Positions 3,649 to 62,792 of a stretch of 64,000 nt of DNA are shown here, one piece after another. Numbering within the stretch: the first letter of the stretch is position 1; each line of letters opens with the position of its first letter. The position numbers were made by a program, and so were the translations under genes. Source of the stretch: Ginglymostoma cirratum (lineage: Eukaryota); NCBI GenBank assembly GCA_024137785.1, contig JAHRHZ010000076.1, positions 15,203,873-15,267,872 on the forward strand, written 5' to 3'. The notes under the pieces are model-generated. The model worked only from the letters and a program-made list of their open reading frames with translations. It was not told the origin of the DNA and ran no database searches.

Positions 3649-3687
3649 AGTTTTTGTGCGGGGGTTCAAAACAACGACAGCACCGTG
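3649..3687 (-). promoter_or_regulatory. 23-bp-spacer recombination signal sequence (RSS)
   Basis: CACGGTG - 23 nt (CTGTCGTTGTTTTGAACCCCCGC) - ACAAAAACT on the minus strand. Confidence 0.93.
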
Positions 3688-4108
3688 TTGCAGCGCAGTA
3701 GTAGGTAGCTGTGTCGCTCAGTGCAATGTCATTGATAATAAGGAGGGTGGAACTTTCAACAATTTCGATATTGAATCGGGAGGTGAAGTCGGTGTGCAGC
3801 CAGGTGAGTTGCTGGGACCGGAGAACGCCTATCCCGCGAATGACTGTGCCTTTCTGCTGGTACCAGTAGATAGATTGGGACGCTATGTCATCCGTCCCTT
3901 CAGTCCGACAGACGAATCGTGCGGTCATTCCCGTGGTCCGGGTGAGCGACAAAACCTGCTTCAAAGACAAGAGGGCTTCACCAGCGGCTGGAGACAGAAG
4001 CACAAAGAATCATTTTTACCAGAGAGACCCATCCCGACGGTGTTGGTGTTTACATCACATCATACTGGAGTTCATTAAGAAAACTAACACGAGCAGAATG
4101 GACGACAT
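3688..4108 (-). CDS. Antigen-receptor V segment, single-copy atypical family, apparently intact (probably TCR gamma)
   Basis: Leader exon 4108-4066 (MSSILLVLVFLMNS, GT donor), 78-bp intron, AG acceptor, V exon 3987-3688: TAGEALLSLKQVLSLTRTTGMTARFVCRTEGTDDIASQSIYWYQQKGTVIRGIGVLRSQQLTWLHTDFTSRFNIEIVESSTLLIINDIALSDTATYYCAA. Both Cys, WYQQ and DTATYYC present; directly followed by a 23-RSS. Confidence 0.88.
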
Positions 4109-4669
4109 GATTCTACGATGCCGTGTCAGAGTGAATAGTCGAAACGGTTTAATTTTCTTGTCGCAAACTTACAAGACATCAAGATGAGCGCCCGGACGAA
4201 GTAAGACGACATATTGTCCCAATGTGGGACAATTGAAAGTCTTGCTCCTAGTCACACTGGAGGGCAGTGACAGTCATGAAGGAAGTGACTTCGACCCCCT
4301 CGGCCAGCGTGAACTTAGTGATCTGCCTCTTGCTGGAACCCGGAGTATCCACTCTGGGTCATCAACACCCCTTCTCTGCTCCAACTCACAGACCCACACC
4401 AGTGGGAGGAGCCATAGAGTTACCTCACTATAACAGACCATCTTATTCAACAGTTTCAGGTTATGAATTCAGTCCTCCATTATGTTTATTTTACCCTTAG
4501 GTACGGCATGAGCCATGAATTGAACAAAGATGGACTTTGCCTTAATTTTTTAAGATATGATTTGGGTTATTAATATAGGCGCCGGAGTATCGTGACTTAA
4601 ACACTTTACACTTCCTTTTGTAAATAATACAAATGACAATAAATTACTATTTTAATAATCTATTCTGTT

Positions 4670-5410
4670 ATAGAGTCATCGAGTCATACAGCACGGAAAC
4701 AAACCCTTCGGCCCACTCAGTCCATGACGAACATAACCCCGAACTAAACCATTCCGACCCGGCTATTCCTGGCCTAAATCCCTCCAAACCTTTCCTATTC
4801 ATGTACTTATCCAAACGTTTTTAAACGTTGTAATTGTACCTACGTCCACCATTTCCGCAGGAAGTCCATTCCACACGCGAACCACCCTCTGTGTAAAAAC
4901 TTTCCCCCTTATGTCTTCTTTAAATCTGTCTCTTCTCACCTTAAAATGTGCCTCCTATTCTTGAAATCCCCCATCCTAGAGAAAAGACAACGACCATTAA
5001 CTCTATCTGTACCTCTCATTATTTTATAAACTTCTATCAAGTCGCCTCTCAACCTTCCATGCTCCAGTGAAAGAAGTCCCAGCCTATTTAGCCTTTCTTT
5101 GTAACTCAAACCTTCCATACCCAGAATTATTTGCTAAATCTCTTCTGAAACCCTCCAGCTTAATAATATCCTTCCAATACCTGGGCGACCAGAATTGGAC
5201 GCAGTATTTTAAAGAGGCTTCACCAATGTCCTGTACAACCGCAACATTGACTTCCCAAATTCTATACTCATAGGATTGAGCAATGAAGGCAAGCATGCTA
5301 AACGCCTTTTTAACCGTCCTGTCTATATGTGACGCAAACTTCAAGGAATTATGTACCTGCACCCCTCGTTCCCTGTGTTCTACAGCATTACCCAAGGTCC
5401 TACCATTAGT
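4670..5410 (-). mobile_element. CR1-type LINE 3' fragment
   Basis: ORF pieces GLSYKERLNRLGLLSLEHGRLRGDLIEVYKIM and YCVQFWSP are the CR1 ORF2 C-terminus; GACTCTAT-type tail near 4670. Confidence 0.85.
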
Positions 5411-6199
5411 TGTATATTCTTTTCATATTCTTGCTTTGAGATAGAGCTATTCATTATTCTGCCATTACCACGCCCTCTGACCATTACCACTCCTTTTGTG
5501 AGATAAAACCATAAGCTATAGGAGCAGAATTAGCCCATTGGGCCCATCGAGTGCACTCCACCACTCAATAATGACTGATATGTTTCTCAACCCCATCCTC
5601 CTGCCTTCTGCCTGTCGCCCTCTAGCCCCTTACTTATGAAGAACCTATCTACCTCTGTCTTAAATACACCCAATGACATTTGTTTCAGTACATTTTTGTT
5701 AATTTATCTCTCCCACTCTTTCCGATCTTAGACACTCTTTTCGCTCTTCCTGAACCTCACCAGGACAACATAAAAGCTATCATATTTGTCATATTCGATT
5801 CTAGATGTTAACTCTGTCTCTCTCTCCACAGACACTACCAAACCTGCTGAGTGTTCTTACCCGAGTTTTGTTAATATTTTAGTATTGTTGGAGACCACTG
5901 GTGGTAATATAAAAGTTTCAATAGTCAATTTAGTTTGTCTTTTTTTATTTCTGCTTGGTGGAAGTCAACAGGAAGACAGGAGCAGTCGGGTTGGGATTAC
6001 GGGGCCACATGCAGGTGAGAATATAAGTGGTAAGTGTTTTGCTTCAATTTTCACATTAAGGATAAAAATCACAAACTTATGAACGGATCTACCAGGAAAC
6101 CCAAAAAGTATATCAGGGAAACAAGCTTAGTTTTAAAAAAAAGATAATTATGAAAATAATGAGAATTCAGAGAAATGAATCTCCAGGATGTGATATTTT

Positions 6200-6930
6200 C
6201 CAAACTGGACAGTAAAAGAAAGGAGTAAGAATATTACAAATGCGTTTGTCATAATTCCACAAAAATCTCTATAGTCAGTAACTGTGGGAAGGTTGCTGGA
6301 GACTGTCTTCGTGGATAGGTAGTAACCACGCACTTGAAGGAACATGAATTGCTCAGAGAATCTGCATATCCCTGTGAAAGGATAGGTCACATCTGACTGG
6401 TCTAGTTGGCTTTTTTTCTGGTGACGACAGGGGGTTTGTTTATGAATGTGTACTGCATGGATTTTCAGTCGCGATTTGATGAGGTTTTACACAAGCTTAT
6501 TAGTAAAATTGAAAACTCAAGGTGACATGGGATGACAATTGTTTTGGAACCAGGAGGCAAAATATAGGGAGGAATTTGCCTTGAAGATGTATTCTGAATG
6601 ATGGGAATTGACAGGTGGTTTTTACTTCGGTATTTCGCACTGGACCTCCGAAGTTACTTTTTGACCAGAGAGATGTTGGTGGATAAAGGAAGAGAGAGTT
6701 GCGTACCCAAGTGTGCAAATTAAACATCGATGACTGTAGAGATGAGAGCAGCAAGTTATGAATGAAAATTAATAGTATAAGTGAATGGATAAAATTATGG
6801 CAAATGCAGTTTGATGTGAGGAATTGTCTTTGGGGCCAAAAAAAAAGAGGAACTGGAATATGTACAGTACTTAATGGTGAGCATCTGGGCAATGTGAAAG
6901 AACCGTAGAAATTTAGTGTTCGTGTGACTA
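6200..6930 (+). mobile_element. Old CR1 RT fragment
   Basis: Degenerate MDF..FD.V and W..LWQMQFDV type motifs. Confidence 0.55.
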
Positions 6931-6999
6931 CAAGGTAGGCCTTAGTTTAAAAAAAAAGTGTAATTAAGAAGTATACTCTGATCTTGCTCCTTCGGTCAA

Positions 7000-8769: not shown

Positions 8770-9214
8770 GGGTTTTGTAAGCGGATTGAATTGCTGTTTC
8801 ACGCTATGATGCCAATAGGCCCAATAATAAGTGGCGGTATCATCTGTCTTTATTTTTTCAATACGCAGATAATGTTGCCTGAGTCCAGATTTGACAGCTT
8901 TAAATCTTTCATTTAATACATTATCCTACCCTTTGTTAAGGAGCAAGCAGACAGGTTGTTGTCCGGTTGCCTGTTAGTACCAGTGGATGGGGGAAGAACC
9001 GACTGATTCACTCAGCTCGCACGTAATTATAACATGACTCCCCATTCGCCTGATCAACGAAAGTTGATTCTGCTTCAAATCTTGAGTAAAACACTTGCCT
9101 ATGGGAAAATAAACACCAAATTAGAAATATTTTTACAGTCTGAAGTAAACAAAAATAAAACAAAATCAACTTACGCGGAAAAAATGCCACTAAAGCGACC
9201 CAACGCAGCAACAT
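8770..9214 (-). pseudogene. TRGV: TCR gamma-type V pseudogene, single-copy family, with degenerate RSS
   Basis: Leader 9214-9175 (MLLRWVALVAFFP, GT donor). V exon 9098-8809 reads KCFTQDLKQNQLSLIRRMGSHVIITCELSESVGSSPIHWY*QATGQQPVCLLLNKG*DNVLNERFKAVKSGLRQHYLRIEKIKTDDTATYYWAYWH: two stops and second Cys replaced by Trp. RSS CATAGCG-23-ACAAAACCC (8808-8770) has lost the CAC. Confidence 0.9.
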
Positions 9215-15635: not shown

Positions 15636-15674
15636 GCTTTTTGCGCGGGTTCCCCCCGACTTTCTGTCACTGTG
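15636..15674 (-). promoter_or_regulatory. 23-RSS
   Basis: CACAGTG - 23 nt - GCAAAAAGC. Confidence 0.93.
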
Positions 15675-16122
15675 AGCCCAGAAAGCACAGTAATAGACCC
15701 CAGAGTCATCCTCCTTGATATTCCTCATGAGCAAGCTGCAGGTTTTCGACTCAGAATTTTTTTCAGCAACTAGTACTTTGTCGGTGATATCTTGCTGAGT
15801 TTCAAACTGACTCTTGAAATATAAAATGCGCTGTATCCGTTGACCCGGGATGTGCCGGTACCAGTGGATAACCGTATTGTCGAAATTGCTCCCTTCAAAC
15901 TTACATTCAAACCGCGCAGTCTTCCCCGGAGCTCTGGTTGTTGATATTGGAGACTGAGTCAACGTTTGAGCAACAGATTTCCCTGCCGGTGAAAAAAATG
16001 TAAATGAGGTTATTTATGAACACGGAGACCACAGAATGTTAAACAATGGAAATAATCAGTGGGAACCTGCTGTACTGACCGAGGAGAGAGATTAGTAAAA
16101 TCGCAAGGACGTGACCCTTCAT
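15675..16122 (-). CDS. TRGV: TCR gamma V segment, family A copy 1, intact
   Basis: Leader 16122-16080 (MKGHVLAILLISLL, GT), 97-bp intron, V exon 15982-15675: GKSVAQTLTQSPISTTRAPGKTARFECKFEGSNFDNTVIHWYRHIPGQRIQRILYFKSQFETQQDITDKVLVAEKNSESKTCSLLMRNIKEDDSGVYYCAFWA. IHWY and YYCAxW motifs are typical of V-gamma. Confidence 0.92.
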
Positions 16123-16218: not shown

Positions 16219-17329
16219 CAAGCCTTCGCGTTGCCTCAAGGATGACCTTCCATTGAATGGGCAAGCGTTTTCACCTGGTTATTGACAGTTTCACTGAAGT
16301 CCGCCCGTCACCCCAACCATGTTGCCCTCTCCTTCATTGCAAGTGCTGATCACTCGCTGGGCAAGTTACTTTCTACTTTTGCCCGAGACTTTCGCCCTTA
16401 TAGGTTTTCTAGCGTTTCCTTGCTCCATTCCAGCAATTTAATTGAAAACAGCACTACAGATCTACGTGTTTTACAGGTTCTCATCAACTTGTTCAGAGCT
16501 GTTATCATTCACCTGTGGAGTACATGGGACCTGAACCCCAACCTCCGAGTACAGATGTAGGGGCACTACACCACAAGAACCGTCATATCTGCCTTTCTTA
16601 TTCTAGTAACAATTTTGGACAGGTGGAGAATATTTCTCTGTCCCATGACAAACCCTGTCGGAATTTAGAACCGAAAATAACTTCAATCTTTGGGCTGAGC
16701 TCAAACCGCTAACACTTGAAAGCAGTCTTATGACACGTCTATCACTGGCTCCAGTATATCTTGTCTGGGTGACCAGAGATGGTAACATTACTCGATGTCG
16801 TCTGACTAGAGCCCCATACAGCTTGTCCTTTGCCTTCTCTGACCCGTAATCATTCTGTTGACTGTTCTGGACAAACAGACTGTTGCCAACGTTAATTGCT
16901 GCATTTGGCGATTGAGAATTGGATCTACTAGGGTGCCACCTTTAACATCATCCTTGGATTTTCAAACAATTCATGCGATGAAAGTTCCGCCCATTGTTTC
17001 TACCAGACGTATTGCTCTTTCTCCCTCTGTTTCCCACATTCTCAGGCTCTTTCATCTGTCCTTTCCCACTTTCCTTTTCCCTTTCCACACTCAATCTTTA
17101 TCTCTCACTCATGTTGTTGCTTTTTCCTGCCCTTTCTCCTGTTCTCCATTTCCTCCGGATCTCCCTTTCACTGCTCAGGTCCTCTCTTCCTGCTTTAGAC
17201 TGTTTTAACCTATTGGCTTTTATATTCACTGTTTTGCCCCTTCTCCTCTCTCTGTTTTCTATCATTCTCCGTCCATTACATATTCTTTTCACTTTCTCTC
17301 TTTAAGACTCACCCCTGAAAATGAAATAC

Positions 17330-19290
17330 AGGGAAGTTTGGCTGTGAGTGTACAACGAACGCAGAAAATTAACACTTAGGTGTGGCAAGTAATTATGCAG
17401 GGAAATCATGTGTTTCTCTTTCATGCAACGGTATCAGGTACAAGACTAAAGGCGCCTTGCTGCAAATGTACTTGCCTTTGAGGAGACTACATCTAGAATT
17501 ATTCGTGAAGTAGTAATTTAAGGAAGGATACATCATCGTAGGAGGCAGTACAGAAAATATTCACTACTTCGGTTCCTGGAAGGGGAAGGGGTGTCCGAAA
17601 ATGAAAGGTTGACCAAATATTCTTTTGAGTTCAGAAGATGAGAGGTGATTGAGTTGAAATACAAAAGATTCTGAAAGGGTTTGACAAGGTCGGCACAAAT
17701 GTTGTTTCCCTTGGTTGGAGGATCCAGAACGAGGGTGGAAGGGGCCACAACTTCAGGATAAGGAGTTGATTGTTCTGGACTATGATGAAGAGAAATTTCT
17801 TCAATGAAGGCTGTGAACCATTGGAATTCTCAACCCCAAAGCTTTGAAGTTGGCTCTGTAACTGACTATATTAAAAGCTTAGACGACAAAACTTTCTTTT
17901 TTCAAAGAATCAAGTGATGTGGAGAGCTGAGGCAGATCATGGGTCGTAATTGTATTAAACAGTGGAGCAGGCTCCAGAAATCATGTTTTACTAATGCTTA
18001 TGTTTCTTATTTTGTCACTTGTCTCTTCTCTACTTCTATGGCCGTTTGAAGTGAATGCAGATGAATCCACGGGGCACGAAGAAAACTACGGGTTTCTTTT
18101 GGTGCCGTGACCAATATTTATCTTCAACCACCATCACCAAACTAGATCTTTTACATTTATCTTACCGCCTTTGATGGGATCTGTTGTGGGCTCGGTGAGA
18201 AGTTGAGAAGTAGAGCCCTTCATGGGAACCTCAGCAAGTGCAGGAATTGAATCCAAGCTGGGGGCATCATCTGCGTTGCAAACCAGCTCCAGTCAACGGA
18301 GCTTCTAGAACGCATTTGATGAGGTGCCACAGAAAAGGTCAATATACAAGGTAAGATCAGGCGGGTTTGGGGGTAATATATGAGCTTGAGAGCAGAGAGC
18401 CTGGAGAAATGGGCCTTTTACTGGCTGGCAAGTTGTAACTAATGGAGTGCCACAGGACTCATCCTTGGGTCGCAACTATTTACAATCTATCTTAAAGACC
18501 TCGGTGCATCGATAGAATGTACTGTAATCATATTTGCAGATGATACTAAAACAAGTGGTAAAGTAAGTTGCAATTATGAAATAAGAAATTTGCAAATGGA
18601 TCTAGGTAGCTTAAGGGAGTCAACGAAAATTCAGCATATTGACTGAACGTGAATAAATATGAGGTTATTCATGTCGGTCAGAAGGATAAAAAGGCATCTT
18701 GTTTCCTAAATGGACAGTAATGTCAATATGTTTCGGTGGAACGGGATCTGGGTGTCCTAGTGCATGTGTAATAGGGAAGGCAAGCAGAATTTTGGCATTT
18801 ATTGCTAATAGGATAGAGTATAAAAGCAGGGAGGAATTGTTGCAACTATACAAGCCATTGGTGAGACTGCATCCACAGTTTTGGTCCCCTTACTTCAGGA
18901 AGGATGTAATTGGATTGGAGACGTTCAAAGTTCACCACATTAATTCCAGTGTTGAAAGGTTTATTGTATGAGGACAGCAGATCAGTTGAGGCCTATCCTC
19001 TAAAGACTTTAGAAGGATGAGAGGATGCCATTGAATCATAGTTTTAGACTAATGGTTGGCAGATTTAAAACCGAAAATGAGGATGATATCAAAGGCTTAT
19101 GAATCTCTTGAGAATCACTACCTCAGAGCCCGTGGACACCAGGATACTAAATAAATTTAAGTCAGAGACAGGCAGATTTATAATTAGCAATGGGTCATGG
19201 GGAGCGGGCAGGAAAGTGCAGCTGAGGTCGATCTGATATCAGTCGTGTTCGAGGGGCAGAATTGTGCCCGCCTGCTCACGGTTATTCTGT
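17330..19290 (+). mobile_element. Cluster of old CR1 3' fragments
   Basis: FADD at ~18533 and LQLYKPLVRLHPQFWSPY; right part paralogous to ~37550-38340. Confidence 0.7.
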
Positions 19291-23040: not shown

Positions 23041-23785
23041 ACCAATTCCCTGTATAACTTTAAATCTTTATCCAGTTTGCTTTTCAAAGTGGCTACTGGA
23101 TCTGTTTCCCCTCTCTCTTCACGCAGGACATCCCAGATCTCAATTTACTTCAAGTAGAACAGAGACATTCTTTTGTATCTCTGTTTACTCAGCCTAAGAC
23201 GCCGTATGTGAATTAATGAGAAGTTACACGTCGATAACCACTTTATTGCTGCAGTGGGACCGGAGCTGACTAACACACCCAGACGTCCCCGATCCATCCC
23301 TGCACATCATTGACATTTGGCTGGTTTACACTGCTCCAGCGGCTGGTCTGTATGCCCACACCCTGAAATTCAATGACTGAAGAAAGAATTCCGGATTATA
23401 ACTCCATCCCCCTGCCCAGGGAGAACATCACCGCGCCATCGGCAGCGTGAGTCCTAATCTAGCAAAGGCCACGAACTCCACAGTGAGTCGGCTCTGGGCT
23501 CTCTCACCCCAAGATCACCTAACACCTGAAGAAGAAATGAGGCTCCGAAAGCTTGTGTTTTCAAATAAACCTGTTGGACTACTTGTACCGTGTGATTTCT
23601 GACCAAGATTAGGGGAAGTATATTGATCAAAACAGCCCAGACCTGGCTTGCTTCGCATCAGTTTCCATTTCACGAATTCAGGCAGAGAAAGCTCAGACAG
23701 GTCCAGCTGTGGTGTCGTCGCTACTTTACCCAAATAGGGGAGGAGTCTGTGAATTCCTCTGACAGTTTCGCTTCAAATCGTTCAG

Positions 23786-23824
23786 TGTTTTTGTACGAAC
23801 TTTGTATTGATGTCTCGCAGCGTG
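23786..23824 (-). promoter_or_regulatory. 23-RSS
   Basis: CACGCTG - 23 nt - ACAAAAACA. Confidence 0.9.
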
Positions 23825-24266
23825 TATCTATCCAGCGCGCACAGTAATAGGTGGCGGTGTCCTCCGTCTTTATTTTGTCGATTGTGAGGTAGAATTCTTT
23901 GTCTTTAGATTTCCCAGCTTTGAACCGTTCACCAAATCCCGGATCCTGCGATGTGCCTGCTCCATAATAGAGGATTCGGGTGGGTGCCTGGCCGGGCTTT
24001 TGCTGGTACCAGTGAAGCGGATCAGTGGCGGTAATAGTTGCACCTTCGACTTCGCATTTGAATCGAGCGGTTTTACCCTCATTTTTGGTAATGGATGGGA
24101 CAATCTGTTTCAGTGTTTGTGCAAAATATCCGCCTGAGGAAAGAATATACAGGGTTACAAAGATAAGATATGATGGATGTGATTGAACAGCAAGGTGTGA
24201 ATAATAGCGTCAGAAACACATACAGGGCAAAGCGGTTACCACAATGAGCCAGTAATATAGCGACAT
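23825..24266 (-). CDS. TRGV: TCR gamma V segment, family C copy 1, intact (not in the ORF track)
   Basis: Leader 24266-24224 (MSLYYWLIVVTALP, GT), 90-bp intron, V exon 24133-23825: CGYFAQTLKQIVPSITKNEGKTARFKCEVEGATITATDPLHWYQQKPGQAPTRILYYGAGTSQDPGFGERFKAGKSKDKEFYLTIDKIKTEDTATYYCARWID. Confidence 0.93.
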
Positions 24267-24404
24267 GTTCACTCAACCTTCAACTGTTCTGTCAAGCAGC
24301 TGGATAGAGACTAAAAGGAAACGACTCATTTCCTTCAAACCAATCAGTGAGATATTGGTCAGGGTTTCAAGCCCGCCCCCGCCCTCCAAGTTGGTTATTT
24401 GCAA

Positions 24405-25470
24405 TATAAACAGAAAATGTTGGATTTACTGAAGCAGCAACTGTGGAGAGAAAAACAGAGTAAACGTTTCAAAACCCTAAGCTTGAATAAGTTGAGATGT
24501 TGACAGTGTCAACCCCGCAAATAGGAGGGAAACAGGGAATGGGGAGGTTTCAATAAAAGGGGTATCTGTGACCGGTGGAGGACAGGAGAGTTAACTATCG
24601 CAGGGGATGGAGGTGCAAAGGGAACGGTGATGGTGATGGGAAGTGAACAGAAACAAAATCACATACCATCCCACCAACTTTCCAATACAACGCATCCTCC
24701 ACTGACATTTGCGCCATCGACAATCGGAACCCACCACCAAAAAGTTCTCTCCCCACCCCTGTCTGCTTTCCGCAAGAACCTTTCACACCCCGACTCCTTT
24801 GTTAGCTCCACACTCTCCACCGAACCCTGGACCACACCCAATACCTTTCCTGGCAACCACAGGAGGTGCTACACCTGCCCCAAACCTCCCCTCTCACCTC
24901 TGTTGGAGGTCCCAAATAATCCTTGCAGATTCAGCAGAGATTCATCTGCACTTCATCTAACCTCATCGACTGTATCCTTTGCTCCCGGTGTGGTCTCCAC
25001 TATATCGGAGAGACCAAATGCAGACTCCCGACCGGTTTCGCTCTGCAGGTACTATCCGGCCTGACCTTCCAGTTGCCATCCACTTTAACACTCGCGCCCA
25101 TTCCCCCGGTGACATGTCCATCCTTGGCCTCCTCCACTGTCAGAGTGAGGCCAAATGCAAACTGGTGGAAGAACACCTGGTATTTTGCCTTAGGAGCCTA
25201 CAGCCCAAAGGCCTGAATATAGACTTCACCAGCTTTAAAATCTCTCCTCGCCCAACCTGTCCAATTTCCTACCCTCCTATCCGCTCCACCGTTCCCACTG
25301 ACCAACCACAATAACTCTCACCTGCATCACCAGTTTCAAATCTCTCCACCCCCAACCCATCCATCTTCCTACTCAACTGCTGCTCGGATGCTGTCTGATC
25401 TGCTGTGCTTTTCCACATCCACAGTTATTTACTCTAGCTCCCAGCATGTGCAGTCCCTTTTGTCTCCCAG
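24405..25470 (+). mobile_element. Penelope-like retroelement fragment with GIY-YIG endonuclease remnant
   Basis: QRFICTSSNLIDCILCSRCGLHYIGETKCRL and LPVAIHFN...EEHLVFCLRSLQPKGLNIDF, frameshifted; identical copy at 47454-48519. Confidence 0.8.
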
Positions 25471-26621
25471 AAACAAAATTTGCATCCAGAGAAGTTGGAA
25501 ACGGCAACAGCAGAATCATGAACAAAAACAAAGTTGCTGGTAAAGTTCAGCAGGTCTGGCAGCATTTGTGAAGGAAAAAACAGAGTTAACATTTCGGGTC
25601 CGGTAACCCTTCCTGCTCTTTCCGGACTCTTCCCACTGGAGAAATTTATTGATTCTTATCTACCCTCTCCTCTCCCTTTCTCATTTCAAGTAGCTCAATT
25701 AGATTAGTTCATCTAAATTGAAGACAACGCAAGCCAAGATTATTAAATCTGTCTTCATAACAACAAATTAATTTGTGAATGAATGGGACTTTGCCAGAAT
25801 GTGTGTCTTTTTTTTATGCTGTTGTGGTAGATTATTGCCCGAAGTAATGTCAGGAGCTGTCCAATACAAGTCAACGGTCTTTTATTGAGCCAATATTGGG
25901 TAAGACTACTCCAGGAAGAAATTCCGAGTTAATACTCCAACTCATTGAGGATGTTTATACATTGCTTGTCACGTGGACAGTACTATACTCCAAATCAGAA
26001 ATAGCCTGTTTTCGACAGCAACATTGTTTGTTGCACATTCGAAAAGTGGCATGGCCAACTATGGTCCTAACTGCCGATCTTCCCAGGTGCCATCCCATTT
26101 CCTCTGTGAAGACCGTGCTTCATTCATGTCATTGATTGATCCCGACTGCTTCGTCTTTCCTGGTGTGGTACCGAGTCATTGTCACATTCCATTTCCAACT
26201 CAGGCTTCAGGATTAATGCTGGTTCGGCCACTTTGCATTTTCACAGAAACCGTGCTGCATTTGAGCGCGTTTGTACAGTTTAATTCACTGTTCTTTTAGC
26301 CTGACTAAGAATATATGAAAATGGACCTTAAATCATTTGTGAATTTCTCTAGAATCTTCTTTCTCTCTCTCACCCAAGCCGGAACTCAATTTGGATTTAT
26401 AGGCTAATTCACGTCATACCCAAAAAGGCCCGTCAGAATTCAAAACAAAGGGCACGCCTCAAATACACATCCGCCAACATATACTTCGCCTCATGTTAAA
26501 CTTTGTTTTCAATGCATCCGCCGAGACTAGGTGGGACGATTTCCTACGTTTAACAGCGCTTTATAAATGTAAGTTGGTGTTGTCGGTATGGTAGCTGAGG
26601 GTAGAGAGAGCTGAAGCGCCG

Positions 26622-26660
26622 CGTTTTTGTAAAGGCTTTCTGTCTCTGTTGAACACTGTG
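26622..26660 (-). promoter_or_regulatory. 23-RSS
   Basis: CACAGTG - 23 nt - ACAAAAACG. Confidence 0.95.
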
Positions 26661-27096
26661 CTGTCCCAGTAGGCGCAGTAATATGTGGCAGCGTCTTCCT
26701 TCACGATGTTATTGATTATCAAAGTGGCAACAGTGTTCCTCTTATCTGCTTTAAACCTGCTGCTGAATCCCGGATCCCGTACGACGCTGCTGTCATAATA
26801 AAGTATTCTGGAGGGCGCCCGACCCTCCCGGTGCTGGTACCAATGGACAATGGTGCTCTCGCTGTTTACGGTGCATTTAAACCTGGCACTTTTACCGGGC
26901 TTGGTTACATACGATATTGGTGACTGTGTTATAGACTCAGCCAAACGCCCATCTGGGAAAATAAAATTAACAAAGTTATGTTAAAAACGATAATGAATGA
27001 TGGACTGACAACTAAGTAAACTTAAGTAAAGACAGTTAGATACGTACAGGATAAAAGTAGCGCCACAATCACCCGGAACATGGTGCACCTGAACAT
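26661..27096 (-). CDS. TRGV: TCR gamma V segment, family D copy 1, intact
   Basis: Leader 27081-27048 (MFRVIVALLLS, GT; second in-frame ATG at 27096). V exon 26952-26661: YGRLAESITQSPISYVTKPGKSARFKCTVNSESTIVHWYQHREGRAPSRILYYDSSVVRDPGFSSRFKADKRNTVATLIINNIVKEDAATYYCAYWD. Confidence 0.93.
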
Positions 27097-27599
27097 GGTG
27101 CTCGCTCGGTACTGGGTTACTGCTGCTCAGCGTCATATAAAGGAGGTGAGCTCTCTTCTGCCTCCTTCCTCCAACGGCGGGAATTTCCGCTCACAGCACA
27201 ATTGAACCCGCCCACTTTAATGCCTCTTCATAAAATGTGAGACCGCTTACTCTCCATGTTTGTCATTTGTTTATTTTGCTTTCACAGACACGGGAAGTGT
27301 TAATTCAAAATTCTGTTTCGGATTGTAAATTTTAAAGAAATTGCTCCGAGTTAATGTGCTCGCTAGCACCAGACTGGGAGGTGTTTGCAGGTAGACTCAG
27401 TGAGTGGTGTGGTCGGGGCGACGAGTGAAGCAGACACAACTGTGGCAAAAAGATCAAACTTAACAGTGAATTCGCTCATACTCTCGAAGGGTAGATTCCC
27501 GAAATGTTGACAAAGAAATATATGTTCTGAACTCCTAATCATCTTAACTAAAGTTATTGTTTATGATCCTGCTGTTCCCAGTAGGAAATCTATGGCAAG

Positions 27600-29575: not shown

Positions 29576-30281
29576 AAGGTGCTTTGATTCCTTTATGTTG
29601 CAGATGATCATTTCTTCACTTGTGTGAATTTCTCGCTCAAGCCTGAATGTTATCCAGGTTCTCCGTCATATAGATACAGACAGATTCAATATCTGATGAA
29701 TCATGAATGATTGTGAACATTGCAATCATCAGCAAATACTCTTATTTCTCATCTAATGATGAACCAAAATGATGTAGCACCACCCTGATGGCCTCCCATC
29801 CATCAGGTTCATCAGTTGACAATGGCAGATGACCATCAACCAAAAGTTTTCCACGCACCTTTGAGCTGATTAAGTGAAAATCTGCATTAGAGAAGCAATT
29901 TCTAATGGCTGATGTGATGCAGTGGTAGTACCCTTATCACATCAACTAGGAGTTCCGGTTTCAAGTCCCAACTGCACCAGAGTGGTGTCAAAATGTGTCT
30001 GATCTGGTTTATTTAAAAACATCTATATGAAAATTCATGGGTTTCATAGCTAACATTTAGAACTCCTGCACAGTCCCCCCATCTGTATATCACTGTGCTG
30101 CCTCCCATTTTTGGTACAGGCATACATGTGCAGACAAAGTGATGGTCAAGATTAGGACAGTGTTTTTACGGTATGAACTGCCGTTATATTTATTGAACGG
30201 TCTATGGGTAGAAAACCCCAGGTGTGAGTAAGAGATATTGTATTTGATCTAATGCCAACGGTGATCAATTCTCCTGTTTTA

Positions 30282-33200
30282 GAGCAAAGAAAATTACAGT
30301 ACAGGAACAGTCCCTTCGGCCCTCCAAGCCTGCACCGATATACTGCCCGTCACAACTAAAACCCCCTACCCTGCAGGGGACCATATCCCTCTCTTCCCAT
30401 CCTATTCATGTATTTGTCAAGATGCCCTTTAAAAATCGCTATAGCATCTGCTTCCACTGCCTCCCCCGGCAGTGTATTCCAGGCACCCACCACCCTCTGT
30501 GTAAAAAACTTGCCTCCTAAATCAAACCTTTAAACCTTACTCCTCGCACCTTAAACTCATGGCCCCTGGTAAATGATTCTTCCATCCTGGGAAAATGTTT
30601 CTGACTGTCCACTCTGTCCATGCCATTCATAATCTGGTAGACCTATATCAGGTTGCCCCTCAACCTCCGTCGTTCCAGTGAGAACAACCCAAGTTTCTCC
30701 AACCTCTCCTAATAGCTAATGCCCTCCACACCACACATCATCCTGGTATATCTTTTCTGTACCATCTCCAAAGACACCACATTCTTCTGGTAGTGTGGCA
30801 ACCAGAATTGAACACAATGTTCTAAATGTAGCCTAACTAAGGTTCTATGAAGCTGCAACATTACTTGCCAATTTTTAAACTCAATGCCGATTGAAGGCAA
30901 GCATGCCATATGCCTTGTTGACTACCTTCTCCATCTGCATTAAGGGATAACAAGCATGAGGCTGGATGAACACAGCAGGTCAAGCAGCATCATAGGAGCA
31001 GGAAANNNNNNNNNNNNNNNNNNNNNNNNNNNNNNNNNNNNNNNNNNNNNNNNNNNNNNNNNNNNNNNNNNNNNNNNNNNNNNNNNNNNNNNNNNNNNNN
31101 NNNNNNNNNNNNNNNNNNNNNNNNNNNNNNNNNNNNNNNNNNNNNNNNNNNNNNNNNNNNNNNNNNNNNNNNNNNNNNNNNNNNNNNNNNNNNNNNNNNN
31201 NNNNNNNNNNNNNNNNNNNNNNNNNNNNNNNNNNNNNNNNNNNNNNNNNNNNNNNNNNNNNNNNNNNNNNNNNNNNNNNNNNNNNNNNNNNNNNNNNNNN
31301 NNNNNNNNNNNNNNNNNNNNNNNNNNNNNNNNNNNNNNNNNNNNNNNNNNNNNNNNNNNNNNNNNNNNNNNNNNNNNNNNNNNNNNNNNNNNNNNNNNNN
31401 NNNNNGTCAAGTTTTCCTGCTCCTATGATGCTGCTTGACCTGCTGTGTTCATCCAGCCCAATGCGTGTTATCTCGGATTCTCCAGCACCTGCAGTACTTT
31501 TTACCCCTTCTCCATCTGCATTGCCACTTTTTGCGACCTGTGTACCTGTACACCTAGATCCCTCTGCCTGTCAGTGCTCTTAAGGGTTCTGCCTTTTACT
31601 CTATATTTTCCATCTGAATTAGACCTTCCAAAATGCATTACCTCACATTTTTCTAGATTAAACACCATCTGCCATCTCTCTGCCCAAGTCACATGCCAAT
31701 CTATATCTGGTAGTGTCCTTTAATGGCCCTCATCACTATCCGCAATTCCACCAACCTTTGTCATCGGCAAACTTACTAATCAGACCAGTTACTTTGTCCT
31801 CCAAATCATTTATATATATTACACATAGCAAAGGTACCAATACTGATCCCTGAGGAACGCCACCAGTCACAACCCTCTATTCAGAAACATATCGTTCCAC
31901 TGCTACCCTCTGTCTTCTATGACTGAGCCAGTTGTTTTTAATCCATCTTGCAAACTCACCTCTGACCCCACGTGACTTTACTTTCTGTATCAGCCTGCCA
32001 TGAGGGACTTTGTCAAAGGTTTTACTGAAGTCCATGTAGACAACATCTACTGTCCTACCCTCATCGATCATCTTCATCACTTCCTCAAAAATCTCAACCA
32101 AGTTAGTGAGACACGAACTCGCCTTCACAAAATCCTGTTGCTCCTCACTAAAACACCCACTGATTTCCAGATTGGAGAAAATCCTGTCTCAAAGAATCCT
32201 TTCCAATAATTTCCATACCACTGACGTAAGGCTCACTGGCCTGTAAGTAGCTGGATTATCCTTGCCATTTTTCTTAAACATAGGAACAATATTGGCTATT
32301 CTCCAATCCTCTGGGACCTCCCCTGTAGCCAGTGAAGATGCAAAGATTTTTCTCAATGCCCCAGCAATTTCCTCCCTTGCCTCTCTCAGTATTGTGGGGT
32401 ATACCCCATCAGGCCCTGGGGACTTGCGTACCTTAATGTTTTTCAAGACCCCCCAATACCCTTTCCCTTTTGATCTCAACATGACCCAAACTATTTACAC
32501 ACCCTTCCCCAGACCTTCATCCACCAAGTCCTACTCTATGGTGAATACTGATGCAAAGTACTCATTTAATACCCTGCACATTTCCACTGGCTCCACACAT
32601 AAATTCCCTTCCCTGTCCTTGAGTTGGCCAACCTTCTTCCTGGCTGCCTGCTTGCTCTTTATGTACGTATAAAAAGTCTTGGGATTTTCCTTAATGCTGT
32701 TTGCAATGACTTTTCATGACCCCTTTTAGCCCTCCTGACTCCTTGCTTAAATTTCTTTTGACTTTCCTTGCATTCCACCTTTGCTTCAAGTGTTCCCTGC
32801 CTCCTAGACTTGATAAACGCTTCCTTTTTCTTTTTGATTAGGCTCACAACATCTCTCGTTATCCAAGGTTCCCTAAACTTTCCATACTTATCCTTCATCT
32901 TTAAAGGAACGTGCCGGTCCTGAGTTCCCAGCAACTTACATTTGAAAGCTTCCCACAAACCATATGTCGATTTGCCCTTAAACATCTGCCTCCAATCTAC
33001 ATTCTTGTTCCTGCCTAATATTTTTGTAATTAGACTTCCCCCAAATTAGCACTTTCACCTGACAACTACACATATCTTTTTCCATCAGTACCTTAAAGCT
33101 TACTAAATTGGGATCACTGTTCCCGAGCTGCTCCCTGCTGAGATGTCGGCCACCTGGCCAGACTCATTCTTCAGTATTAGGTCCAGTGTGGTGCTTTCCA

Positions 33201-34756: not shown

Positions 34757-35512
34757 CTTAACTGACTTTTCTGCAGCAGATCATAGACTCCATTGGTTGG
34801 TTCATGCTGAGCAGGAAACAAACATACTGCCATGTGATAGGTTTCGCCCAAGGATGGCAGATTTCAATAACCACTGGTTACTTGTAAACTCCGCTGGTGT
34901 TCAGTACAATCCAGTAATTTCATTGTATTGCTGAGTCTTAACTTTTAAAAATCTAACCCCTCAACAACCGTAGTCGTATGTGAGTTTGTATCCAGAGCCT
35001 TAGTCCAGGGCTCCAAATTGCTAAACTTGTAACAGTATCCCCACAGTATTCCGTGCGGTTTGCGGATGCGGATCCACAGTTGGTATATGGAATTAGATCA
35101 CAGACCCGCCATTAATTCGCTGTGTGTGGGAACAGACTCGAAGACGCTTTTCCATTTATTTTGGATGTGACTGCACTATATATTGGTTGTGGTATGTTGA
35201 TTTCGGTGATATATTCATTGATGATCATTTGACAACAGGAGGCTTTAAACCCCTTTGTTGGGTTTTCACAAACATGATAAATGAACAGAGACATTTGTTT
35301 AAATAGTAAATGGATTGTTATGTCCATTTATAGAACAGTTAGATCGTCATAATTTATTCTCCCAAGTTTGACAAGACAAAGCAAAGAGCATTGTGAAAAC
35401 AACGAACTGTCTGTGCAGCCCAGTGCGGAGTTCAAAGCTGGTGGAACTCTCCAAACGCTACACCTGCCATTTGTGTCATCACAGTTTGCAAACAGTCAGC
35501 AGGACGGCGATT

Positions 35513-36002
35513 GCTTTGTGCGCGGTTTTTCCATGACTTTCAGTCATGGTAAGCCCAGAAAGCACAGGAAAAATCCCCAGAGTCATCCTCCTTGATATTC
35601 CTCATGAGCAAGTTGCAGGTTTTGGCCCCCGATTTTTTCTTTTAGCAAGTGGTACTTCGTCGGTGACATCTTGCTGAGTCTCAGATGGATTCTTGAAATA
35701 TCGTATGCACTGAAGACCTTGACCCGGGATCTGTCGGCACCAGTGGGTAATCGCATTGTCGAAGTCGCTCTCTTCATACTTACAGTCCAACCAAACTGCG
35801 ATCCCCGGAGCTCTGGTCATTGATACTGGAGGCTGAGTGACGTTTGAGCAACAGATTTTTCTGCCGGTGGAAAAAAAATGTAAATCAGGTTATTTATGAA
35901 TTCAGCGACCACAGAATGTTAAACAATGGAAATAATCAGTTGGAACCTGCTGTACCGAACGAGGAGAGCGGCTAGTAAAATCGCAAGGACATGGCCCTTC
36001 AT
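35513..36002 (-). pseudogene. TRGV: V pseudogene, family A copy 2
   Basis: Leader MKGHVLAILLAALL from 36002 with the donor changed GT to TT. V exon 35860-35552 has frameshifts in FR1 and FR3, WY changed to WC, and YYC changed to FSC. RSS TACCATG-23-GCACAAAGC (35551-35513) has a dead heptamer. Confidence 0.9.
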
Positions 36003-39790: not shown

Positions 39791-40301
39791 GGTTTTTGTA
39801 ATAAGCTTCTTATTACAAAAAGCTTCTTATGGTTGAATAAGCTTCTTATGGTTGTTTCTCACTGTGGGGACCCAACAGGCACAGTAATAGATGGCATAAT
39901 CAGACTGTTCAATGTTATCAGTTATAAGGAAGAATGAAGAGACACTTTTCTCAGCTGAGAACTTGGAGGGGATTCCCGGATCCAGCGCAGCTCCGTTTTT
40001 GCTGAAATAGATTATTAGGCGCCCGGTTGGGTCGGCGCTGGTACCAGTGGATGGCTTCCGTGTTCTGTGTCACGCATTGTATTTTGACCGTTGTAGCCTA
40101 GGGCCTAGTGACCTACATTGGAAACTGATTCAAGACCTCAGCAAAATGTTCACCTGCAAACAAAAAATATCGATAAGTCATATAGCTGAGGAGATAGGCA
40201 GAAATCAGAAAGGAAGTGGATAGGGAGGAACAGTACCAGTGAATGGGAAGGCCAGCATGCAGAAGATACAGATTTGAGATTATCTGCAATAGAAGCAACA
40301 T
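39791..40301 (-). pseudogene. TRGV: V pseudogene, family B copy 2, with expanded RSS spacer
   Basis: V exon 40153-39867: EHFAEVLNQFPM*VTRP*ATTVKIQCVTQNTEAIHWYQRRPNRAP [frameshift] IIYFSKNGAALDPGIPSKFSAEKSVSSFFLITDNIEQSDYAIYYCACWV. Consensus CACAGTG (39866-39860) and ACAAAAACC (39799-39791) are 60 nt apart. Confidence 0.9.
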
Positions 40302-47315: not shown

Positions 47316-47453
47316 GCTCACTCAATCTTCAACTGTTCAGTCAAGCAGCTGGACAGAAACTAAAAGGAAACGATTGACTTCCTTCAAACCAATCAGTGAG
47401 ATATTGGTCAGGGTTTCAAGCCCGCCCCCGCCCTCCAAGTTGGTTATTTGCAA

Positions 47454-48519
47454 TATAAACAGAAAATGTTGGATTTACTGAAGCAGCAACTGTGGAGAGA
47501 AAAACAGAGTAAACGTTTCAAAACCCTAAGCTTGAATAAGTTGAGATGTTGACAGTGTCAACCCCGCAAATAGGAGGGAAACAGGGAATGGGGAGGTTTC
47601 AATAAAAGGGGTATCTGTGACCGGTGGAGGACAGGAGAGTTAACTATCGCAGGGGATGGAGGTGCAAAGGGAACGGTGATGGTGATGGGAAGTGAACAGA
47701 AACAAAATCACATACCATCCCACCAACTTTCCAATACAACGCATCCTCCACTGACATTTGCGCCATCGACAATCGGAACCCACCACCAAAAAGTTCTCTC
47801 CCCACCCCTGTCTGCTTTCCGCAAGAACCTTTCACACCCCGACTCCTTTGTTAGCTCCACACTCTCCACCGAACCCTGGACCACACCCAATACCTTTCCT
47901 GGCAACCACAGGAGGTGCTACACCTGCCCCAAACCTCCCCTCTCACCTCTGTTGGAGGTCCCAAATAATCCTTGCAGATTCAGCAGAGATTCATCTGCAC
48001 TTCATCTAACCTCATCGACTGTATCCTTTGCTCCCGGTGTGGTCTCCACTATATCGGAGAGACCAAATGCAGACTCCCGACCGGTTTCGCTCTGCAGGTA
48101 CTATCCGGCCTGACCTTCCAGTTGCCATCCACTTTAACACTCGCGCCCATTCCCCCGGTGACATGTCCATCCTTGGCCTCCTCCACTGTCAGAGTGAGGC
48201 CAAATGCAAACTGGTGGAAGAACACCTGGTATTTTGCCTTAGGAGCCTACAGCCCAAAGGCCTGAATATAGACTTCACCAGCTTTAAAATCTCTCCTCGC
48301 CCAACCTGTCCAATTTCCTACCCTCCTATCCGCTCCACCGTTCCCACTGACCAACCACAATAACTCTCACCTGCATCACCAGTTTCAAATCTCTCCACCC
48401 CCAACCCATCCATCTTCCTACTCAACTGCTGCTCGGATGCTGTCTGATCTGCTGTGCTTTTCCACATCCACAGTTATTTACTCTAGCTCCCAGCATGTGC
48501 AGTCCCTTTTGTCTCCCAG
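47454..48519 (+). mobile_element. Penelope-like GIY-YIG fragment (duplicate)
   Basis: Same ORF translations as 24405-25470 at offset 23049. Confidence 0.8.
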
Positions 48520-49670
48520 AAACAAAATTTGCATCCAGAGAAGTTGGAAACGGCAACAGCAGAATCATGAACAAAAACAAAGTTGCTGGTAAAGTTCAGC
48601 AGGTCTGGCAGCATTTGTGAAGGAAAAAACAGAGTTAACATTTCGGGTCCGGTAACCCTTCCTGCTCTTTCCGGACTCTTCCCACTGGAGAAATTTATTG
48701 ATTCTTATCTACCCTCTCCTCTCCCTTTCTCATTTCAAGTAGCTCAATTAGATTAGTTCATCTAAATTGAAGACAACGCAAGCCAAGATTATTAAATCTG
48801 TCTTCATAACAACAAATTAATTTGTGAATGAATGGGACTTTGCCAGAATGTGTGTCTTTTTTTTATGCTGTTGTGGTAGATTATTGCCCGAAGTAATGTC
48901 AGGAGCTGTCCAATACAAGTCAACGGTCTTTTATTGAGCCAATATTGGGTAAGACTACTCCAGGAAGAAATTCCGAGTTAATACTCCAACTCATTGAGGA
49001 TGTTTATACATTGCTTGTCACGTGGACAGTACTATACTCCAAATCAGAAATAGCCTGTTTTCGACAGCAACATTGTTTGTTGCACATTCGAAAAGTGGCA
49101 TGGCCAACTATGGTCCTAACTGCCGATCTTCCCAGGTGCCATCCCATTTCCTCTGTGAAGACCGTGCTTCATTCATGTCATTGATTGATCCCGACTGCTT
49201 CGTCTTTCCTGGTGTGGTACCGAGTCATTGTCACATTCCATTTCCAACTCAGGCTTCAGGATTAATGCTGGTTCGGCCACTTTGCATTTTCACAGAAACC
49301 GTGCTGCATTTGAGCGCGTTTGTACAGTTTAATTCACTGTTCTTTTAGCCTGACTAAGAATATATGAAAATGGACCTTAAATCATTTGTGAATTTCTCTA
49401 GAATCTTCTTTCTCTCTCTCACCCAAGCCGGAACTCAATTTGGATTTATAGGCTAATTCACGTCATACCCAAAAAGGCCCGTCAGAATTCAAAACAAAGG
49501 GCACGCCTCAAATACACATCCGCCAACATATACTTCGCCTCATGTTAAACTTTGTTTTCAATGCATCCGCCGAGACTAGGTGGGACGATTTCCTACGTTT
49601 AACAGCGCTTTATAAATGTAAGTTGGTGTTGTCGGTATGGTAGCTGAGGGTAGAGAGAGCTGAAGCGCCG

Positions 49671-49709
49671 CGTTTTTGTAAAGGCTTTCTGTCTCTGTTG
49701 AACACTGTG
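49671..49709 (-). promoter_or_regulatory. 23-RSS
   Basis: CACAGTG - 23 nt - ACAAAAACG. Confidence 0.93.
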
Positions 49710-50130
49710 CTGTCCCAGTAGGCGCAGTAATATGTGGCAGCGTCTTCCTTCACGATGTTATTGATTATCAAAGTGGCAACAGTGTTCCTCTTATCTGCTT
49801 TAAACCTGCTGCTGAATCCCGGATCCCGTACGACGCTGCTGTCATAATAAAGTATTCTGGAGGGCGCCCGACCCTCCCGGTGCTGGTACCAATGGACAAT
49901 GGTGCTCTCGCTGTTTACGGTGCATTTAAACCTGGCACTTTTACCGGGCTTGGTTACATACGATATTGGTGACTGTGTTATAGACTCAGCCAAACGCCCA
50001 TCTGGGAAAATAAAATTAACAAAGTTATGTTAAAAACGATAATGAATGATGGACTGACAACTAAGTAAACTTAAGTAAAGACAGTTAGATACGTACAGGA
50101 TAAAAGTAGCGCCACAATCACCCGGAACAT
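49710..50130 (-). CDS. TRGV: TCR gamma V segment, family D copy 2, intact, coding sequence identical to copy 1
   Basis: Leader 50130-50097, V exon 50001-49710; ORF-track protein identical to 26561..26944 at a constant offset of 23049. Confidence 0.9.
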
Positions 50131-50679
50131 GGTGCGGTGACCGGCTTGCTCGGTACTGGGTTACTGCTGCTCAGGGTCATGTCTATAAAGGAGGCGAGCT
50201 CTCTTCCACCTCCCCCACACCCACCCCCACGCAACCCCCAACGACGGGAATTTCTGCTCTCGGCATAAATTGAACCCGCCCACTTTGATGCGTCTTTATA
50301 GAATGTGAGACTGCTTACTCTACGTGTCTGTAAGTGTTTCTTATTTGTTTTCTTTTGCTTTCACAGACACGGGAAGTGTTAATTCAAAATTCTGTTTCGG
50401 ATTGTAAATTTTAGAGAAGTTGCTCCGAGTTAATCTGCTCGCTAGCACCAGACTGGGAGGTGTGTGCAGGCAGACTCAGTGAGTGGTGTGGTCGGGGCGA
50501 CGAGTGAAGCAGACACAACTGTAACAAAAAGATCAAACTTAACAGTGAATTCGCTCCATTATCTCGAAGGGTAGATTCCCGAAATATTGACAGTGAAATA
50601 TATGTACTGAACTCCTAATCATCTTAACTAAAGTTATTGTTTATGATCCTGCTGTTCCCAGTAGGAAATCTATGGCAAG

Positions 50680-60080: not shown

Positions 60081-60299
60081 AAGATGGTAAAGCATATCAT
60101 GTGGAATATAATGTGAGATAATTTTTTTTGTTTTTACCTTCTAAACGTTTTGCGCAGTCTTGTTTTCCTATTCAGTGAAGTCATACAAAACAATGAAAAT
60201 GCAGCTTAATTGGAGCAATTATTTCATAAGCAATACATGCTAATTATATTGATGCATTTTAATATGGATCGAAACGTATTTTGTTATCAAAGTTTATTT

Positions 60300-61060
60300 T
60301 GTGTAATGTGCACCACAGACCCACAGCAGAGGTTGCAGTGTACGTGCACTCAACGTTGTTAAGGTGGGTGTATGAGCATTTGGACCCAGTGATAGTGAAA
60401 AACATTATTATGGTTCCAGTCAGTTCAGTGTGGGGAGGTCTTGTACCTATTACCTTTGCCTTTCTAGAGATCATGGGTTTAAGAGATGAACCATGGTGAA
60501 TAACTGCAGAGCATCTTGCAGATGGTACACTGTGCAACCGTTGTATGTTAATTTTGAAAAGTGATGAATGGAGTTCCAATTAAGTGGACTGTTCTTCCTT
60601 GGATGGTGTTCAACTTCTTGAGTGTTATTATAGCCACTCTCATCCAGGCAACTGTAGACAATTACGCCATTCTGCTGCTGGGTGAGTTGTATTTTGGGCA
60701 GGCTTTAGGGAGTAAGGAGTTGAGTTTTTTCCACAACATACCCAGGCTCTGGCCTTGTCTTTTAACCACAGAGTTTACATAGTTGCCCAGTTAGTTTTGT
60801 GTTCAATGGTAGCCCCCAAGATGTTGATGGTGTTGGTCTTAGTGATGCAGTCGAATGTCACAGGGAGGTGCTTAAATTCCGTTATGTTGCAGATGTTCAT
60901 TGCTTCATGCTTGTGTGAACTTCTTAGCTCAAGCCTGAATGTTGTCCAGATTCTGCTACATATAGAGATAAACAGATTCAATTTCTGATGAATCATGAAT
61001 GATCGTGAGCATTGCAATTATCAACAAATATTCTTATTTCTCATCTTATGATGGAGGGAA
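60300..61060 (-). mobile_element. CR1/L2-group LINE fragment
   Basis: Reverse-complement similarity to 45850-46600. Confidence 0.6.
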
Positions 61061-62304
61061 CTGATGAAGCAACACCCTGCTGGCCTCCCATTCAACAGAT
61101 GCATCAATTGAGAACAGAGTATCATCATCAACTGGAGGTTTCCCAACCATCTTTCATCTGACTGCCTGAAAATCCATGTTAGAGATGAAGTTTCTAATGG
61201 CAGATGTAGTGCAATGGTGGTGCCCTTATCTCTGGACCAGGAGTTCCATCTTCAAGTTCTGCCTGCTCCAGAGGTGTGTCTAAACATATCTGAACTGGTT
61301 AATTTAAAAATATCTGGATGAAATTTCATGGGTTTCAGTGTTAACATTTAGATATCCTGCCAATCTGTTCTTCCCTGTGCAGGCAAGTTGATGGTTGAGA
61401 TTGGGACTGTTTTTAAGGTATTATCTGTCGGTCCATTTATTGAACAGTCTATGGATACAGGATCCCAGGTGTGAGTGAGAGGTATCTTGCAATACCTAAT
61501 GCTCGGGGAGATGGATTCTCCTGTTTTATTCTTAATTGACTTCTCTGCAGCAGCTCATACACTCCTTTGGCTTGTTGAGGCTGCCCAGGAAGCAATCCTA
61601 CTGCTGTTTGAAACGTCTCACACATAGGATGGCAGGTTTGACTACTTGTTATGTGTAAATTCAATTGGTGTTCAAGGAAATCCAGTAGTTTCATTGTATT
61701 ACTGAATCTAACTTTTAAAAACGTAATCCCTCAACCACCGTAGCGGGTGTGAATTTATATCCAGCGTCTTAGTCCAGGGGTCTAGATTACGAGTATTCTA
61801 ACATTATCCCAACAATATTCCTTCCAGTTTGCGGTTGCGGATCCACGGTTGGTATCTGGAATTAGATCACACGCACGCCATGAATTCATTTTATGTCGGA
61901 ACAGACTCTCAGCGCTGAATGGCCTCCGTTGTTCCAATTTTTTGGAAGTGACTGCAATACATTGGATGTGGTTTGTTAGTTTAGGTGGCATATTCGCTGA
62001 TGATCGTTTAACAACGGGAGGCTTTGAAACCCATTTTTAGGTTTTCTAAAAGATGAAAAATGAGCGGTAGTGGGTGAATTGTTACATCCAATTATAGAAC
62101 AATCAGATCGTCTTAATTAGATTTCACAGGATGAGCAAAATCATTTTATTCTCCCGAGTTTAACAACACAGTGCAAAGGACGTCGTGAAAACAATGAATT
62201 GCCTGTGGAACTGAGCGCGGAGTTTAAAGCTGGTGAAACTCTCCAAATGCTGCACCTGTCGCTTGTGTGATAACAGCTTGCAAACGATCAGCAGGAAGGC
62301 GATC

Positions 62305-62343
62305 GCTTTTTGCGCGGGTTCCCCCTGACTTTCTGTCACTGTG
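62305..62343 (-). promoter_or_regulatory. 23-RSS
   Basis: CACAGTG - 23 nt - GCAAAAAGC. Confidence 0.93.
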
Positions 62344-62792
62344 AGCCCAGAAAGCACAGTAATAGACCCCAGAGTCATCCTCCTTGATATTCCTCATGAG
62401 CAAGCTGCATGTTTTGGTCTCAGAATTTTTTTCAGCAAGTACTGTTATGTCGGCGATATCGGACTGAGTTTCAGACGGATTCTTGAAATATAAAATGCGC
62501 TGTATCCGTTGACCCGGGATGTGCCGGTACCAGTGGATAACCGTATTGTCGAAGTCTCTCCCTTCATACTTACAGTCCAACCAAATTGTGTTCCCCGGAG
62601 CTCTGATCATTGACATTGGAGACTGAGTCAATGTTTGACCAATAGATTTCCCTGCCGGTGAAAAAGATTGCAAATCAAGTTATTTGTGAATACAGAGATC
62701 ACAGAATGTTGAACAATGGAAGTAAGCAATTGGAACCTACTGTACTGACCGAGGAGAGAGATTAGAAAAATCGCAAGGATGTGGCCCTTCAT
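62344..62792 (-). CDS. TRGV: TCR gamma V segment, family A copy 3, intact
   Basis: Leader 62792-62750 (MKGHILAIFLISLL, GT). V exon 62651-62344: GKSIGQTLTQSPMSMIRAPGNTIWLDCKYEGRDFDNTVIHWYRHIPGQRIQRILYFKNPSETQSDIADITVLAEKNSETKTCSLLMRNIKEDDSGVYYCAFWA. Confidence 0.92.

Follow-up and report, generated by a model that had tools for sequence, protein, structure and literature searches.

An old A-B-C-D block repeat in the T-cell receptor gamma V array of the nurse shark, with patches of identity suggestive of later gene conversion

The T-cell receptor gamma (TCR gamma; locus TRG) genes of the sandbar shark were reported, in the relevant part of the source, as five variable (V) segments in five subgroups, three joining (J) segments and one constant (C) gene (PMC7349638). 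Chicken TRG, according to the corresponding part of PMC8493715, expanded through tandem copies of a V motif that spans several families, and section 5 of PMC5931798 assigns 69 nurse-shark cDNAs to nine V-gamma genes in three families, nearly twice the sandbar number; a V-gamma count above that of the sandbar shark is therefore not new. Here, we analyzed a stretch of 64,000 nucleotides of the nurse shark Ginglymostoma cirratum (G000:C76:15203873-15267872; hereafter the window), together with flanks of 60 kb to its left and 240 kb to its right. We propose that the window carries the V array of a shark TRG locus with four J segments and one C gene, and that this array contains an old A-B-C-D block repeat that was patched later by gene conversion, a reading to which we assign a probability of about 0.78. 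What is new is the patchy identity between the units together with a perfect 2,757-bp tract. No genomic map of nurse-shark TRG was found in the literature searched, and one may exist elsewhere; term searches of PMC13007054, PMC10322711, and PMC12227049 added nothing on this locus.

The V segments were located by six-frame translation, tblastn, and scans for recombination signal sequences (RSS) in the window; their letters (O1, O2, and A to D) follow an earlier sequence-based note (the original prediction), and E denotes a V segment beyond a long run of N. All 11 segments that the original prediction had listed were found on the minus strand in the order given there, which on the plus strand reads O1, psiO2, A1, psiB1, C1, D1, psiA2, psiB2, C2, D2, and A3, and its limits, 3649 and 62792, are exactly the end of the O1 nonamer and the ATG of A3. 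As it had also stated, no J or C was detected between the 11 segments in the scans of the window. Seven of the 11 are intact, in that a leader and a GT-AG intron precede a V exon with an open frame and an RSS with a 23-bp spacer (23-RSS) follows it, and the remaining four are broken; because D1 is identical to D2, the window holds six distinct intact V sequences.

The family order is repeated, and in the self-comparison suggested along with the original prediction, carried out as a self-alignment, the non-repeat spacers of the units align collinearly when shifted by ~19-23 kb or ~47 kb, far beyond chance. The repeated unit measures ~20-23 kb and carries families A-B-C-D head to tail, and two full units and the start of a third were observed. 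With gaps excluded, the divergence of seven spacer blocks amounts to 0.21-0.28 per site. At the junction of units 1 and 2 lies a repeat-rich insertion of ~4.5 kb (30281-34757) that contains a 400-N run (31006-31405); the two sides of this insertion (to 30281, from 34757) abut in the gap-free junction between unit 2 and A3 (61528/61531). In the third unit, A3 alone is visible ahead of a 90,213-N run, which begins 1.85 kb right of the window. The region upstream of A1 (16882-18156) aligns to 63963-65257, upstream of A3, indicating that the third unit continues into the long N run. The array thus extends past the right edge of the window, as had been anticipated, and a twelfth V segment (E, described below) lies beyond the N run. 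These results indicated that the repeat is real and old.

The age of the repeat was assessed against a second organism, using contig and read findings drawn from the best 40 matches of each table. Contigs of organism A showed 0-1 differences to the window over hundreds of bases, and organism A was therefore taken as the window's species, whereas contigs of organism B were 4-6% off the window. In all three DNA runs of organism B, two contigs were observed in the C-D interval at ~2x the depth of the unit-1 flank, which has one contig. Because the spacers are 21-28% apart compared with ~5% between the organisms, we infer that the block duplication is several times older than the split from organism B. 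The original prediction had gone further, reading the array as a doubling of the V-gamma set in this species by block duplication followed by loss; the block duplication and the loss, with four broken V segments, were both borne out, but a lineage-specific doubling was not shown. Indeed, an array of this kind could be the usual shark state, with the sandbar locus reduced or incompletely sequenced and no lineage-specific doubling, an alternative that in our view falls not far short of even odds. The spacer divergence speaks for it, at 4-5x the divergence of organism B, itself two-copy, from the window's species, as do the records of bamboo, zebra, and horn shark, which include orthologues of the families O1, O2, C, and D. 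In particular, O1 shares 87% identity with chiPu_0000080 of the bamboo shark and 68% with a model from the horn shark, D1 is 80% identical to bamboo shark chiPu_0000082, psiO2 groups, at a support of 100/99, with a horn shark V whose frame is open (P0008, N-terminal half), and the O1 and O2 families are adjacent in a horn shark gene model too. Conversely, the sandbar locus is reported in the part of PMC7349638 that describes it with one V in each of its subgroups, five in all, and the bamboo shark numbering leaves one model between chiPu_0000080 (O1) and chiPu_0000082 (D), a weak hint of a simpler array.

The units do not differ evenly along their length. Gene-near blocks diverge by 0.152 (A), 0.079 (the psiB pair), 0.079 (the D promoter), and 0.064 (the C gene), and the low-divergence patches have sharp ends and include non-coding and pseudogene DNA. 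At 24330-27086 and 47379-50135, a tract comprising the promoter side of C, the C-D spacer, and the entire D gene showed 0 differences in 2,757 bp, and the adjoining flanks are 6-8% apart. Among A1, psiA2, and A3, the sites at which one copy is the odd one out are clustered (112 runs vs 151 when shuffled; 10,000 shuffles, p<=1e-4). C1 and C2 differ at 11 of 100 codons, eight of them non-synonymous, and five of those eight fall in complementarity-determining region 1 (CDR1); of the 14 base changes in the V exon, nine are within 23 bp of CDR1. The simplest reading of this patchwork would be that interlocus conversion took place repeatedly while differences in CDR1 were maintained, and for the 2,757-bp tract we lean toward recent gene conversion rather than assembly collapse. 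At the edge of the tract (27087-27101), a 15-bp near-duplication provides an in-frame upstream ATG for D1, five codons ahead of the shared start. It was considered as a junction scar and dropped; it probably predates the tract, because no more than 7 gap letters are present in an organism B contig that covers 27026-27522.

Reads and cDNAs also contain versions of these genes that are absent from the assembly. In run X1, three unrearranged D 3' flanks were observed, one of the reference type, one with 5 differences (departing at 26556), and one with 15 differences (departing at 26521), and an X1 contig of the C family is neither C1 nor C2, with 9 differences from C1 and without the C2 letter at 23701. 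Run X5 carries the reference D over 195 bp with 0 differences; in X24, all six reads over 26866-26882 carry a D diverged by ~9%, and three reads have a spliced leader other than the reference. Two loose-end strings were absent from G000, in a search whose control, the D gene, gave its two DNA matches, and neither string matched in the window at 3 mismatches. The A-family cDNA ADW95919.1 finds no assembled A gene above 79%. Since A, C, and D versions without an assembled match are thus present in reads and cDNAs, the missing versions likely sit in the 90-kb N run, with at least one more unit there. Alternatively, D1/D2 may have their true partner in one of these extra versions.

Such a partner is at the center of a different explanation of the tract, namely that its identity arose by collapse during assembly or polishing, with the true second D among the versions in the reads and the block repeat nonetheless real; we regard this as a sizeable minority possibility. 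In its favor are the zero differences over 2,757 bp beside flanks 6-8% apart, and the presence in X1 and X9 of a D that is diverged by ~3% and followed by a 3' flank of its own. Collapse does not explain, however, why other gene-near patches, the psiB pair included, are homogenized yet not identical; moreover, each copy of the tract has its own flanks on either side, and the extra versions fit more units within the 90-kb run of N into which unit 3 extends. Conversion over an old repeat is our preferred reading, against which a number of points must be set. Purifying selection could partly explain the low divergence near genes, and free decay of psiA2 confounds the runs test in the A family. 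Organism B keeps two distinct copies at the tract. In run X1, from the window's species, there is a C-D spacer without the 820-bp insert present in both assembled copies, which also favors collapse, as do the N runs in the locus; a spacer without this insert is also found in two of the three organism B runs. X1 possibly derives from several pooled animals, and some of the exon differences may come from hypermutation; the divergence blocks were chosen from BLAST matches with gaps excluded; and no AMPH-like 5' border was found in exon-limited searches (no BAR match on contig C76, no SH3 motif up to 144 kb past E).

A third explanation, of a kind already named in the original prediction as one that could overturn it, takes the units for two haplotypes that the assembly placed in tandem, joined across the 400-N run. 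The position of this run between units 1 and 2 and the sameness of D1 and D2 would suit it, but a spacer divergence of 21-28% is too large for alleles; in addition, psiA2 to A3 is gap-free with two A genes inside, the flanks of the N-bearing insertion are adjacent in a gap-free junction, and the depth in the tract is doubled in organism B. We consider this explanation very improbable.

The array is a TCR gamma locus, as had been predicted. To the left of the window, where J segments and C-gamma had been expected, four J segments with 12-bp-spacer RSS (12-RSS) lie on the same strand as the V segments, with heptamers at -2772, -3068, -3381, and -4007. Left of these, on the same strand, are three C exons (-6446..-6790, -8132..-8215, and -11426..-11557; C1-set, with hinge and transmembrane exons found). 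A query with the C exon, which carried intron letters, matched three Ginglymostoma cirratum "T-cell receptor gamma chain" records at 96%, and inspection of exon 1 alone showed it to be letter-for-letter the same as those records. The C gene is single in the genome, as one of 19 genomic matches to C exon 1 exceeded 36% identity. In organism B, the C exon was covered at 2.8-4.9x the depth of the flank, a hint only, depth not being a copy number. A V tree was built from 39 rows, comprising 11 array V (E included, psiB1 left out), nine database V, and 19 other, unnamed V of the genome taken from 20 outgroup loci, one of which yielded no V. All array V formed one clade with the named nurse-shark TCR-gamma cDNAs (support 97/91), apart from the 19 other genomic V; psiB2 and O1 were on long branches. 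Neither outcome by which the original prediction was to fall, a grouping with TRD, TRA, or immunoglobulin light-chain V or units that are alternative haplotypes, was borne out. Exons of a MENTAL domain (PF10457) on the plus strand, opposite to the array, at C76:15144739-15152056, 52-59 kb left of the window, mark a STARD3NL-like gene (STARD3NL or STARD3) at the 3' border; an inverted STARD3NL is given as the usual 3' border of TRG in the pertinent part of PMC7349638. No diversity-like segment with paired RSS was found between O1 and J1, and a solved-structure search of the array V returned only generic antibody and TCR V matches. Derivation of the V segments from a TRA/D, TRB, or immunoglobulin light-chain locus, to which antibody V domains as the best structural matches and a zebra shark orthologue auto-named "immunoglobulin lambda-like" might point, is refuted by the linked C gene, whose exon is the same as in named TCR-gamma cDNAs, and, given also the lack of diversity segments, the STARD3NL-like border, and the clade support, has almost no probability left. 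In many other V of the genome (L021, L022, L025-L028, and L030-L036), a J-like motif with its splice donor follows directly and no RSS intervenes; we take these germline-joined VJ genes to be light-chain-like.

Individually, the segments of the array, all on the minus strand, are in very different states. The J-proximal O1 (3649-4108) is an intact TRGV of a single-copy family with a V-set Pfam match and the 23-RSS CACGGTG/ACAAAAACT. It ends in YYCAA, so that of the two features on which the original prediction had relied, the 23-RSS was present in all seven intact V but the YYCAxW motif did not extend to O1. O1 thus has no Trp after YYCA and an unusual framework region 2 and CDR2, yet it is kept in records of both the bamboo and the horn shark. 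Among five named nurse-shark cDNAs, no use of O1 was seen. The neighboring psiO2 (~8770-9214) has two stops, a second Cys changed to Trp, and a weak heptamer. In unit 1, A1 (15636-16122, leader MKGHV), C1 (23786-24266, leader MSLYYW, heptamer CACGCTG), and D1 (26622-27081, consensus heptamer) are intact, and psiB1 (20406-~20480), listed earlier as a V segment, is only a 5' stub of family B holding the first ~70 bp of the V exon, the rest being gone. In unit 2, psiA2 (~35510-36002) has a frameshift, YYC changed to FSC, a lost leader donor, and a decayed RSS, and psiB2 (~39830-40153) has stops, a frameshift, and a 19-bp tandem repeat in place of the nonamer; C2 (46835-47315), 14 nt off C1 in the V exon, and D2 (49671-50130) are intact, as is A3 (62305-62792), which opens the third unit. 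The CDR1 of C1 equals that of zebra shark XP_059501751.1 (P0005), a TCR-gamma chain to which automatic annotation gave the name "immunoglobulin lambda-1 light chain-like". Twelve long open reading frames (ORFs) located in spacers or insertions gave no match to any Pfam family. The twelfth V, E, is intact and lies beyond the 90,213-N run at G000:C76:15363717-15364148 (159845-160276 on the window scale). Its RSS is weak (CACGATG/GCAAATACT), yet the identical V occurs, joined to J4, in an expressed cDNA; E equals a named nurse-shark cDNA V region over 99 residues. No V was found past E up to 304 kb on the window scale. Decayed retroelement ORFs crowd the area around E (L016-L019), reverse-transcriptase-like and GIY-YIG-like by eye.

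In gamma-chain rearrangement, RAG deletes the DNA between a 23-RSS V and a 12-RSS J and so joins the two, after which splicing connects the joined product to C. Each intact V of the array would accordingly be joined to one J, with no diversity segment, giving a gamma chain, and the duplicated V would add germline choice chiefly in CDR1 and CDR2. The named nurse-shark cDNAs show this V-J-C structure; C1 is 100% identical over 98 amino acids to cDNA ADW95915.1, and C2 is 95% identical to ADW95914.1; in the same comparison, A1 was 83% identical to ADW95919.1. In two contigs of run X9, a D-family V is directly joined to J4, with J matches of 25 nt and 11 nt in 30 letters. J2 (heptamer -3068; L006) was used by none of the five named cDNAs checked. 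The nurse-shark primers in the part of PMC5931798 concerned have a gammaV3 leader as in family A (MKGHV) and a gammaV1 leader as in family C (MSLYYW). Contigs of run X1 at 23664-24133 and 26521-26726 continue through the RSS into the 3' flank and are thus unrearranged. The kinds of runs X1, X5, and X9 are guesses; if X1 is RNA, its unrearranged contigs would be germline V transcripts.

Taken together, these observations suggest a history in which old unequal crossing-over would have built at least three A-B-C-D units, placed between the J-proximal single-copy O1 and O2 and the distal E. Family B died in both visible copies and one A died, and later gene conversion between copies would have homogenized patches. 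The duplication mechanism is ordinary for immune loci, and the main use of the result is a germline map. The germline genes against which hypermutation of nurse-shark TCR gamma was scored had been guessed from cDNA (PMC5931798, in its section 5), and a map of the genomic locus, with its near-identical paralogues, its pseudogenes, and its missing copies, is a reference by which mutation may be told from germline variety. Speculatively, a three- to four-unit array might still be under germline conversion that copies whole V genes and flanks while CDR1 keeps clustered multi-base differences, so that some scored hypermutation would be germline; we consider this unlikely on present data, but if true, part of the nurse-shark TCR-gamma hypermutation scored, tandem mutation included, would reflect unassembled germline paralogues and conversion patches.

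In comparison with the systems described above, the locus agrees with the nurse-shark cDNAs ADW95910-95919 in an identical C exon 1, E, and C1 and in the use of J1-like, J3, and J4; those records are transcripts, whereas here the genomic order, the pseudogenes, the block structure, and the identical tract are seen, and one A-family cDNA is without an assembled gene. With the sandbar shark locus, as far as the relevant part of PMC7349638 describes it, it shares a single translocon of V array, J, and C, but has at least 12 V in seven families, four J, repeated families, and four pseudogenes. As in chicken TRG, in the part of PMC8493715 concerned, multi-family TRGV blocks (10-20 kb in chicken) with non-coding homology and partial losses lie 5' of one J-C cluster; the chicken blocks are highly similar and recent, whereas the nurse-shark spacers are 21-28% diverged with homogenized patches. 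Ruminant, dog, and cat TRG, in the account given in part of PMC7349638, likewise grew by tandem block duplication and contain many pseudogenes. Their cassettes hold J and C, however, whereas the nurse-shark units repeat V alone; because only V genes are repeated here, the term cassette in its V-J-C sense does not apply to this locus.

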